Positions 15,001 through 18,000 of a stretch of DNA of 53,995 nt are shown piece after piece. The stretch is taken from the IMG/VR virus record IMGVR_UViG_3300013101_000012, positions 1 to 53,995 of that record; one strand, written 5' to 3'. The position numbers are program-made. The stretch's first letter is position 1. Each line of letters begins with the position of its first letter. The stretch comes from a virus (taxonomy: Duplodnaviria > Caudoviricetes).

Positions 15001-18000
15001 TGTTTGGTTAGGTGATGGTACTTTAGGGGAAGCCCAAATTACTAACTCAGATCAGGAGATATTATCTTTCTTATCTGATTTTACTCTTAAAGAAAATTTT
15101 AGTTCACACACTCTTTTAGACAAACGTACGGAGTGTCCAAGAGTAAACATCACTACAGAAAAAGGACAACCAAACCACCTTAGACGATATTTAAGAGACA
15201 CCTTTTCAGTGGGCAAACATATCCCACAACTTAATAAAACGGGTAGTAGGGAAGAAAGACTCCAGCTTCTTGCGGGATTACTTGATACTGATGGCCACCT
15301 TGTAGATAATGTTTTTGAACTTACCCTTAAAGAAGAAGATTTTATTGATGATGTTCTTTTTGTTGCTAGAAGTCTTGGTTTTGGTACCTCAAAAAAATTA
15401 AAACAAGTTAAATTAAAAACATGGGATAAACCTAGAGATTATTTTAGGATAAAGATATTTGGGGATTTAGATAAAATCCCTACGAAAGTAAAAAGAAAAC
15501 AAGCAAGTCCAAGAAGGCAGAAAAAAGACCCTTTAAAAACAGGGTTTTCTGTTATTCCTAAAGGCCCAGGGGAATATTTTGGTTTTGAGCTTGACGGAGA
15601 TGGGAGGTTTTTACTTGAAGATTTCACAGTCACACATAATACTACAATTGCCTGTGTTGGAATTTCTTACGATATACACAGATTACTATGCTTATATAAT
15701 CCTCAGGGTGCTTTCGGTCTGCTTCCAGACACAATAATTCTTTTTGCTATCTTCAATGTAACGATGGCACTAGCACAGGATGTTGTTTGGCAGACTCTTT
15801 CAGGAATGTTTGCTAGAAGTCCTTATTTCACTGAAATAATAAAAAAGTTACCTAAACAAAAACCAGAATCTAATCCTATGTTTCCTAAAAATATCGGTTT
15901 ATTTATTGGTTCACGGCTAGGCCACACACTAGGAAAAGCTGTTTTCTCTTGTCTTCCTGGTAGTGTTCCAATTCCTACGATACACGGAGAAGTGCCTCTA
16001 ATAGAGATTGTTCGGAATCCAGGGGATCATAAGGTTTTTTCTTATGATACGGCTCTTGAAAAAGCTGTGCTAGGTGAAGTTACTCATGGCCAGAGTATGG
16101 GAACAAAAGAAGTCTGGAAAATATTTTTGTCCAACGGCCATTTTATAGAAGCCACTCAAGATCATAAGTTCTTATTGAGTAATAATTCATATAAAACACT
16201 AGCAGAATTAGATTATTTAGATGCTTTGACTTTTTTCGTACCCCCCACTGCTCTACAAGTATCTAGCTCTCCCGTTTTAGTTGTTTCTAAAGAGATTGTT
16301 GGAATGAGACAGGTGTACGATATTTCAGTAGAACCACATCATAACTTTGCTACTAGTGCTGGTATCTTTGCTCACAACTGCTTTGCTGGTGATACTGAGA
16401 TTCCCTTATTAGATGGGTCTGTTGTTAAAATAAAAGACTTAGTAGGTAACTATAAAGACAAATATACAATATCAGTTGATCTCACAAGAAAAAGTGTAGT
16501 CCCAGGTAAAATTATAGCCGCAGCCAAAACAGGAACTAGAAAAGTTTATAAAGTTACTTTTGATAATGGTAAATCTTTTAAATGTACTGCTGATCATAAA
16601 ATATTACATAGAAGTGGTAAATATAAAGAACTCAGATATTTTGAAGTAGGTGACGCAGTATTTTCAATTAATAGTCACACAGGGAAATCGGGACACACTA
16701 AAATAAGGAACCCTTACACAGGAGAGTATGAGGCCTTACACCATCATATTATGGCCTGGAAGTTAGGTAATAAACTAGGTTACAATATTCACCATAAAGA
16801 TTTAGATAAATTAAACAACAACCCTGAAAACTTGTGCCTGTTATCAAAGTCTAAGGCCATGTCTAAATTTTATTCTGAGGATAATAGAGAAGAGGTTTTA
16901 AGAGTTAGGAAAGCTGGTTGGAGAACTAGAATACTTAAGAAGTCCTATAGAGAGTACTCAGATACTGGCTTCATCCCTGATATAAATGTTAATGTATTAA
17001 GAAAATATTTTAATGATGATATTACTGAGTATCTTGAGTGTGTTAAAGAATACAATCATAAAATTGTTAGTATTGAATATGTGGGTGTTGAAGATGTCTA
17101 TGATATTACTGTGGATAAATACCATAACTTCACTACTCAAACAAATGTCGTAGTTTCAAATTGTTTAATTGATGAAGCAAACTTTGAAATTGTCCATGGC
17201 CAGGTGTACGAGTCTTTTCTATCTATCTTAAGAAGGATGGAATCACGATTTTCTTCTAATGCTCCTGTAGGAACTGGTAGGGTCTGGTTGGTTTCCTCAG
17301 AATCACAAAAGAATTCTACTCTAAATAGAATTATCAACTCTTATAAAGGTAAAAGTGGTTGTTTAGTATCACAAGCATCTTTATGGGAAGTTTATCCAGA
17401 AAGGTATGGTACTACTACATTTCAAGTTTTCACTGGTGTAGATACTAGGGCCCCAGAAGTTATTACTGAAGCCACTGAAGATTTGGTGGATTTGTACCCA
17501 GAAAAGATTATAGAGGTTCCTACTGAGCATAAAGAGTCTTTTGAAGCTGACATTTACGCAGCGTTAAAAGATTTAGCAGGGATAGAAGTTGGTGGAGGGG
17601 CAAGACTCTTCAGACTCAAAGATAAACTTAATAAAATGTTAATTGGTCCCACGTTCTTTCCAGATGTAGTTACACTGGATTTTGATGGACCTGACCAAAT
17701 ACAAAATTTTTCTAGTATTCCTTTTGATTTTAAGCGAATACCACGTTGTATTCATCTCGATTTGGCCCTAACAGGGGATAGATTAGGGATTGCTTCTTCT
17801 TATATTGTTGATTTTGCTATTAGAACTACTCGTGATCCTATTCGTTTAATTGATGTTCGGGAGTCTAGACCCAAGATTCAGGTAGATTTTGCCTTTGCAA
17901 TATCTCCCGTCAAAGGAAAACAAATTCCTTTGTATAAAATTAGGTCGTTTATTAGTTGGCTATCGTCAATCGGATACCCTATTCACTGTATCACGGCAGA

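Follow-up and report, generated by a model that had tools for sequence, protein, structure and literature searches.

Two inteins abutting without an intervening host residue at the Walker B motif of a predicted terminase gene in an uncultured phage

The locus considered here, in which two inteins (inteins 2 and 3) abut in the predicted terminase large subunit gene of an uncultured phage (Duplodnaviria; Caudoviricetes; IMG/VR record IMGVR_UViG_3300013101_000012), has its closest described counterparts in the inteins of mycobacteriophage TerL, of haloarchaeal MCM and of the Pol and CDC21 proteins. The stretch of DNA that was analysed, referred to as the window, comprises 53,995 nucleotides (positions 1 to 53,995 of the record; one strand, 5' to 3'). 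In mycobacteriophages, TerL1-e lies in Walker B (Gaia gp2), and the P-loop has sites for TerL1-a and TerL1-b at a distance of one residue from each other (Kelley et al. 2016, PMC5050341). Inteins in the ATPase motifs of large terminases, the use of the Walker B site and the presence of neighbouring sites one residue apart are features shared with the present locus. The difference, as far as the accessible part of that paper extends (PMC5050341), is that one intein occupies each site there, whereas two are found at a single boundary here, and that TerL1-e was placed in a class 3 tree, in contrast to the canonical class 1 characters (Cys1, terminal Asn, Cys+1) read from the present pair. The haloarchaeal MCM-a/MCM-d double inteins are described, in the accessible sections of Turgeman-Grott et al. 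(2023, PMC10643990), as mostly invading alleles that already hold one intein. They resemble the present pair in being two nearby inteins in one essential ATPase gene, and the same question of mutual homing effects arises for both. However, MCM-a and MCM-d have separate sites with their own targets and with extein between them, whereas the present pair lacks the extein residues and the own target site on both sides of each intein that characterize the MCM-a/-d type, no extein being found between its members and one Cys being common to both reactions (PMC10643990, same sections). Wider spacings, of 85 residues in T. kodakaraensis Pol and 48 residues in P. abyssi CDC21, are cited in the portion of PMC8966425 that was available. 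Several class-1 inteins in one protein, each splicing alone, are the point of likeness with these proteins, but their spacers measure tens of residues and real exteins are present on both sides (PMC8966425, same portion). At the level of the single intein, intein 2 has the size, the blocks (TxxH, ...HNFA..., terminal Asn) and the predicted fold of the Npu/Ssp DnaE and Ssp DnaB mini-inteins (4kl5, 7qil, 1zde, 6frh, 1mi8), from which it differs in sequence (22-28% identity), in being contiguous and not split, and in having an intein as its C-extein. Set against these systems, the locus appears to be a solitary zero-spacer pair at Walker B, with both partners seemingly canonical class 1 inteins that would be connected by a Cys-Cys-Cys relay. 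No published description of a natural zero-spacer intein pair was found in the full-text literature, subscription journals and supplements lying outside the search; what was retrieved concerned engineered tandem trans-splicing, inteins called contiguous because they are not split, and the MCM double inteins.

Inteins are described as flanked by host residues, and both their chemistry and their extein preferences have been defined in that setting. In the homing model, moreover, an occupied site is immune, the target of the endonuclease being disrupted, and a second intein at the same boundary needs another route for this reason. The locus consequently raises the questions of whether one Cys can serve as acceptor and as initiator, whether the order of the reactions is obligatory and whether two HINT active sites can work on one peptide bond. 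The reading that we consider probable is that two unrelated, complete class-1 inteins at the Ser527|Cys932 boundary were acquired separately and would splice independently, in series. The analysis shows the anatomy of the locus, that both inteins are complete, that the exteins are colinear with those of empty-site relatives, that the junction occurs in a second sample and that the two ancestries are separate; that both inteins splice, in which order, how the site came to be occupied twice and that the nuclease has lost its activity are inferred.

The gene is one uninterrupted frame of 5133 nt that holds four inteins (Table 1). These account for 1109 of the 1710 residues, and the subtraction of 344, 143, 261 and 361 residues leaves a protein of 601 aa. 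The stretches GAIGQGK|T and LIDE of this protein are presumed to be the Walker A and Walker B motifs that are typical of ASCE ATPases. Inteins 2 and 3 abut in the latter motif with zero host residues between them: the junctions read ...LGKAVFS|CLPGSV...GIFAHN|CFAGDT...NVVVSN|CLIDEANF..., Asn670 stands immediately before Cys671, and the end of one C-block and the start of the next N-block, as placed by block hidden Markov models (HMMs), coincide. Cys671 is thereby found in two roles, and Asn670-Cys671 doubles as a scissile bond, C-terminal for intein 2 and N-terminal for intein 3. In intein 2, TQDH occupies intein positions 69-72, block F reads VYDISVEPHHNFA and the C-terminus followed by the +1 residue, Cys671, reads ...VYDISVEPHHNFATSAGIFAHN|C. 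In intein 3, TADH occupies intein positions 70-73 and block F reads VYDITVDKYHNFT. An initial annotation of the window had claimed that the inteins abut with zero extein residues, that each has its own N-terminal block, TxxH block and C-terminal block, and that Cys1 of intein 3 serves intein 2 as its +1 nucleophile. The first claim is borne out by the frame and the codon count, the second by the block reading and by the curated models described below, and the third by the sequence itself (Cys671). The span that it gave, 15950..17164, was right at its start and had to be corrected only at its end, intein 3 finishing at 17161 and positions 17162-17164 being the codon of the +1 Cys. The upstream extein residues AVFS align with ...[FY]-S in intein-free relatives. 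A start of intein 2 at Ser527 was also considered and was rejected, as this would shorten the extein by one residue relative to 124 of the 126 sites that are empty or nearly so, and as Cys528 is where the N-block model begins.

Both inteins carry the Cys1, TxxH, block F/G, terminal Asn and +1 nucleophile by which class-1 inteins are recognized, and are assigned to that class on these motifs. Curated models were run on each intein separately, with cut-offs of 35.8 bits for PF14890, 24.5 bits for TIGR01445, 15.6 bits for TIGR01443 and 24.8 bits for PF13392. Intein 2 scored 46.9 bits with PF14890 (Intein_splicing), 25.5 bits with TIGR01445 (intein_Nterm; residues 1-75) and 22.3 bits with TIGR01443 (intein_Cterm; residues 122-143). 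The values for intein 3 were 60.1 bits (profile positions 2-155 of 155), 50.3 bits (residues 1-76) and 29.1 bits (residues 239-262), respectively, and the scores of both inteins are far beyond chance. PF13392 (HNH_3) matched intein 3 with 35.5 bits and gave no match in intein 2. Residues 9-143 of intein 2 align with residues 13-140 of the DnaE intein 7qil (E 7.8e-11), and its AlphaFold2 (AF2) model, built on an alignment of 52 rows (A2), had a predicted local distance difference test score (pLDDT) of 91.9 and a predicted template modelling score (pTM) of 0.87. The best PDB matches of this model in Foldseek were all inteins, among them the Ssp DnaB mini-intein 6frh_A, with a template modelling (TM) score of 0.86 and E 2.6e-11, and Npu DnaE 4kl5 (TM 0.79/0.86). 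Intein 2 is confidently modelled as a complete HINT domain. C6, T74 and H77 are nearly invariant in alignment A2. In alignment A1 (47 rows, the columns of intein 2 being occupied by unrelated N-exteins), Cys1 and the block B His of intein 3 are invariant, and near-invariance is seen for its terminal Asn and for the Thr of block B.

The same evidence bears on the idea of a composite excision, in which Cys528 would form the thioester, Cys932 would attack and Asn931 would cyclise, releasing a single 45.7-kDa product with Cys671 and Asn670 unused. Such a product is conceivable, as two active sites must meet at Asn670-Cys671 and the outer catalytic residues could lie close together. Nevertheless, the inner elements, which a composite unit would not need, are all retained (FAHN of intein 2; Cys1 and TADH of intein 3), each piece alone passes both the N-terminal and the C-terminal intein models, and intein 2 alone is predicted to fold as a complete HINT domain. 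Composite excision is accordingly regarded as unlikely.

If the two inteins splice independently in series, as preferred here, the 194-kDa precursor would be converted into the 601-aa terminase by four protein-splicing reactions, and two routes could be followed through the pair. In the first (route A), intein 2 would form the thioester at Ser527-Cys528, Cys671 would attack it and Asn670 would cyclise, with the N-extein becoming joined to intein 3; intein 3 would then splice onto Cys932 with Ser527 as its -1 residue. In the second (route B), intein 3 would shift the Asn670-Cys671 bond to a thioester, Cys932 would take over the N-extein together with intein 2, and Asn931 would cyclise, leaving intein 2 to splice in the plain context S|CLI. 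Both routes would give ...AVFS-CLIDEANF..., with Walker B rebuilt only after both inteins have left, and the earlier statement that AVFS-CLIDE is restored by either splicing order follows from the sequence and the canonical class-1 mechanism. Premature cyclisation of Asn670 would result in dead-end cleavage. Excision must moreover be exact, because of the 601-aa remainder and of the one-residue empty sites that are found in 124 of 162 relatives (see below). A different and rather doubtful possibility is that the pair acts as a coupled two-step or composite splicing device, in which Cys671 would gate one reaction by the other and an ordered relay would rebuild Walker B, with intein insertion at an intein|extein junction as a possible origin. 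If such a coupled device were real, insertion at an intein|extein junction would need a homing or recombination route outside current homing models. A naturally compatible zero-linker pair could inform designs with two inteins in series.

The ancestry of the two inteins was evaluated by comparing them with each other and with inteins from other proteins. BLASTP alignments of inteins 2 and 3 show 32% identity (94 aa) and 45% identity (33 aa), and their HINT blocks are 33% identical. The best match of intein 2 elsewhere is 42% identical (proteins P0029 and P0074), and those of intein 3 are 57% (P0049, a reductase intein) and then 56% identical (a terminase Walker A intein). When 221 other inteins were ranked by identity, intein 3 ranked 72nd for intein 2 and intein 2 ranked 182nd for intein 3, and neither stood out by its closeness to the inteins that relatives carry at Walker B. 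Inteins 2 and 3 were not sisters in a weak FastTree phylogeny (222 inteins, 138 columns, 79 open forks), and no starred clade was present around intein 2. The 33% identity and the different nearest relatives argue for separate acquisition and not for duplication, and the comparisons support two separate acquisitions, in either order. A tandem duplication, in which an intein already resident at the site was copied and the copies then diverged, with endonuclease loss or gain, would explain why the HINT domains are homologous and the blocks similar (CLPGSV vs CFAGDT; VYDISVEPHHNFA vs VYDITVDKYHNFT), but it is highly improbable given HINT blocks of such low identity, the 71 of 221 other inteins that are nearer to intein 2, and the 181 of 221 nearer to intein 3, than the partners are to each other, and the placement of the two apart in the weak tree. 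The suggestion in the initial annotation that the same site was invaded twice is thus upheld in part, as regards two separate acquisitions (33% HINT identity; nearer relatives elsewhere, at 42% and 57%). The G+C content at third codon positions (GC3) was 0.26 for intein 2, 0.24 for intein 3 and 0.20-0.25 for the exteins, in DNA of 37.5% G+C, and, with GC3 near the extein values in both, neither intein gives the impression of having come very recently from a genome of different composition. Inspection by eye of the junction DNA, over 30 nt on each side of the three junctions, revealed no repeat or microhomology pointing to a joining mechanism.

The use of the Walker B site was followed in relatives of the gene. 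A phmmer search with the C-extein (277 aa) retrieved 1461 proteins at E <= 0.001, and 162 relatives were classified, namely the best 150 of these matches plus earlier matches sharing the extein. The intein-free relatives are mostly ~590-650 aa long, against 601 aa after excision. The site was empty in 124 of the 162, with exactly one residue at the position of Cys932 (A in 69, G in 27, V in 11, C in 7, S in 5 and others in 5), and some of these empty relatives read ...AVFSC-ILDE (P0137). An insert of 139-187 aa (mini-intein) was present in eight relatives and one of 346-452 aa, with one N-block and one C-block each, in six; a small length difference at the site was observed in two, and 22 were not placeable. 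Fourteen of the 162 relatives (8 mini, 6 long) therefore have one intein on the Ser527|Cys932 boundary or no more than one codon to either side of it, and the region of the Walker B site is a hot spot for inteins. In the terminase family, inteins use three neighbouring codon boundaries ahead of the DE of Walker B. The first lies before the equivalent of Ser527 (P0002, P0007, P0123 and P0144), for example ...DVF|intein|SVLIDE in P0002, and the third lies two residues past it (P0003, P0019, P0179 and P0203), for example ...|CLDEA in P0003; Ser or Cys follows the first boundary as the +1 residue, and Cys follows the third. The pair in the window occupies the middle boundary, which is used by no relative. 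A search of viral contigs gave three distant loci with the pair as query and none with the C-extein. Intein 2 searched against longer proteins yielded only the window's own protein among 183 candidates, and a search with the pair against near-length proteins yielded 46 matches, none of them with an intein pair.

The HNH region of intein 3 was assessed by aligning the intein to 46 homologues. Downstream of the retained HH and NNNPENL, two conserved His are replaced in intein 3, one by Ala (His in 40 of 41 aligned homologues) and the other by Phe (His in 36 of 40). No His is found in the ~70 residues after NPENL, nor any until block F, and the intein measures 261 aa, compared with 345-451 aa for inteins at the Walker B site in relatives. 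The set of catalytic and metal-binding residues of the beta-beta-alpha-metal motif is incomplete in intein 3, in which HH and the Asn residues are kept. The replacement of two conserved His, the lack of any His until block F and the shorter length suggest that the endonuclease is probably inactive today. The proposal that the mini-intein hitch-hikes on the HNH intein is weakened as a description of the present by the loss of these two nearly invariant His and the probable death of the HNH nuclease; hitch-hiking may have taken place in the past. The pair is probably immobile now, because intein 2 has no endonuclease and the HNH region of intein 3 lacks the two conserved His, and it would persist because an imprecise loss would destroy an essential motif.

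The continuity of the junctions was checked in public sequencing data. Parts of the gene are present in five public runs, and the Logan contigs of four of these (X1, X3, X4 and X5) were compared with the window; X1 is a possible source run, and X4 differs in sample and study code from both samples that could be the source. From X1, in which the depth is ~7x, a contig of 4997 nt matches 14775-19501 with 0 differences. A 263-nt contig of X4 covers 16197-16459, again with 0 differences, and bridges 16378/16379 with 182 + 81 nt. Contigs of X3 and X4 also bridge 15949/15950 and 17161/17162, and identical pieces that lie inside intein 3 and do not bridge the junction were found in X5, a marine run of 2017. 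Contigs from four sample codes thus carry the sequence without a difference, and the identical 1710-aa protein is recorded on two contigs, the longer of 83,388 nt. An assembly chimera of two single-intein alleles, which the initial annotation had put forward as the case in which nothing would span 16378/16379, could be suspected in a metagenome assembly of low depth such as that of X1. It is contradicted by the X4 and X1 contigs that cross the junction and by the identical protein on two contigs; two single-intein alleles would, besides, be expected to share no sequence through which a k-mer graph could lead from the end of intein 2 into intein 3, and no contig skips either intein. As the X4 contig, from another sample, bridges 16378/16379 without a difference, a chimera at the junction is very unlikely, and this explanation is largely refuted, with next to no probability left to it.

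The identification of the gene as encoding a terminase large subunit was based on homology, motifs and position in a module. In tblastn, the exteins (query ~425-1700, in three pieces) matched annotated terminase large subunits of Maribacter, Rhizobium, Escherichia, Listeria and Bacillus phages with E values of 1e-24 to 1e-31, the names being those of the annotators and not tested functions. The match with Maribacter phage Colly_1 covered query 427-1691 in three pieces, with 33.6% identity (E 2e-27). The consensus of the family reads GxIGxGKTT ... LDEANF, with invariant Gly, Lys and Glu and a stretch ...LGKAVxxxxLDEANF, and genes for a head protease, a major head protein and a tail sheath lie downstream. 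The 'terminase' matches among PHROGs fall mostly on intein stretches; the top one (residues 30-342) includes part of the N-terminal extein, and one weak terminase match (E 5.1e-5) falls on a stretch of extein only. Precomputed labels give PF27249 for some of the terminase relatives. By homology, motifs and module position, the gene is predicted to encode the terminase large subunit of an uncultured myovirus-like phage.

Several observations weigh against the preferred reading of two complete inteins splicing in series in a functional terminase. As regards the host protein, searches with the exteins or with intein-free relatives gave no match in Pfam-A, NCBIfam or PDB, two intein-free relatives scanned against PHROGs gave none either, and the terminase assignment rests on annotated homologues, context and consensus motifs because curated models miss the family. 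Over the extein, identity to the nearest terminase relative reaches no more than ~50%. The double layout was found in 0 of the 14 occupied relatives and, as no relative shares it, there is no evolutionary conservation of the pair from which function could be argued. Of the alleles with none, one or both inteins that the initial annotation had proposed to look for, empty and single-intein relatives were found, but no double relative and no single-intein allele of this phage. As regards the splicing chemistry, the single-sequence AF2 prediction of the pair, the only model that includes intein 3, had a pLDDT of 32 and was unusable as regards the geometry by which both HINT active sites might hold the Asn670-Cys671 bond. 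Intein 3 has Ser in place of His before its terminal Asn, and its -1 residue in the precursor is Asn. As regards the samples, contigs and not raw reads were compared, the sediment runs X1, X3 and X4 are all of 2018, possibly from a single campaign, and no intein-skipping joint was seen among the contigs of the four runs, although contigs cannot show the absence of alleles. The record is estimated to be ~50% complete, and a second terminase gene could be present elsewhere. The weight of the case is also reduced by its being alone in its family and by an endonuclease that looks dead.

Some of these points are those that would be expected if one or both inteins no longer spliced and the gene were non-functional, either in a defective phage or beside a second terminase in the unassembled half of the genome: the incompleteness of the record, a double layout that occurs in no relative, the non-canonical Ser before the terminal Asn of intein 3 and the Asn at -1 in the precursor, together with the heavy load that four inteins place on one essential protein. 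Inteins with a penultimate residue other than His can be active, and Npu DnaE ends in ASN. Against a non-functional gene, the frame of 5133 nt runs without a stop in DNA of 37.5% G+C, each of the four inteins has its catalytic blocks intact, the colinearity of the exteins with those of relatives is exact to the residue, and the identical sequence recurs in contigs of four sample codes, the marine run of 2017 included. Moreover, no other frame of the 53,995-base window has intein blocks or is terminase-like. The open frame and its recurrence in four sample codes fit a circulating phage and not a dead gene, and only a slight chance, of the order of that given to composite excision or a little less, is left to the loss of splicing.

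The coordinates of the gene, its inteins and their blocks are presented in Table 1. For intein 1, in addition to the Pfam matches Hom_end_hint and Hom_end, N-block and C-block HMM matches of its own were obtained.

Table 1. Positions of the predicted terminase gene, its four inteins and the motifs at the junctions, numbered within the window
Feature	Position	Strand	Description
Terminase large subunit precursor (predicted)	14369..19501	+	1710 aa, 193.6 kDa; predicted mature protein 601 aa
Intein 1	14609..15640 (aa 81-424)	+	Presumed Walker A, between GAIGQGK and Thr425; LAGLIDADG/Hom_end-type endonuclease region
Last four N-extein residues, AVFS	15938..15949	+	Ser527 is the -1 residue of intein 2
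Intein 2, putative class-1 mini-intein	15950..16378 (aa 528-670)	+	143 aa, 15.7 kDa, without endonuclease
Intein 2 blocks	Cys528; TQDH 16154-16165; block F 16313-16351; FAHN ending 16378	+	
Intein 3, putative class-1 intein with HNH_3-type insert	16379..17161 (aa 671-931)	+	261 aa, 30.0 kDa
Intein 3 blocks	Cys671; TADH 16586-16597; block F 17096-17134; VVSN ending 17161	+	
HNH_3 match inside intein 3	16733..16858 (protein residues 789-830; intein residues 119-160)	+	HH and NNNPENL retained, 16790-16834
Cys932	17162..17164	+	+1 of intein 3; would also be +1 of intein 2 once intein 3 is gone
LIDEANF	17165..17185	+	Presumed Walker B (hhhhDE) of the packaging ATPase
Intein 4	18011..19093 (aa 1215-1575)	+	LAGLIDADG_3, 77.9 bits; +1 is Ser1576

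Zero-spacer pairs were also looked for in other proteins. When 266 proteins were scanned with the block HMMs, a C-block followed directly by an N-block was found in two only, the present gene and P0104. The latter (1763 aa) is a class II ribonucleotide reductase (TIGR02505) that reads NP|C...NNSN|CLVGET...|CGE over residues ~654-1393, with a LAGLIDADG-type intein ending in NNSN, followed by CLVGET, and a second intein that apparently ends in ...NAQ before CGE. P0104 resembles the present locus in having a zero-spacer intein pair in a gene of an uncultured phage, but differs in its host gene and in its site, which is not Walker B, and its sequence bears no resemblance to the present one. The arrangement had been thought rare in the initial annotation, which holds within the terminase family, where 14 of the 15 occupied Walker B sites carry a single intein and only that of this gene carries two, but not beyond it, as the layout recurs in P0104. 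Nine further proteins among the 266 have two inteins ~4-12 residues apart, and zero spacing would seem to be the extreme of a graded series of crowded sites. These close pairs (P0009, P0011, P0017, P0018, P0022, P0032, P0052, P0102 and P0147) are mostly in T4-type portal genes by precomputed Pfam labels, crowded examples being ...FVHN|SNPL|CLRGDT in P0017 and ...AHN|SIGRGK|CLSGDT in P0147. Among the genes downstream of the terminase gene, the frame at window positions 33041-36709 (+) encodes 1222 aa, of which the C-terminal 650 residues match tail sheath families and the N-terminal ~560 are unmatched, making it an unusually long sheath gene.

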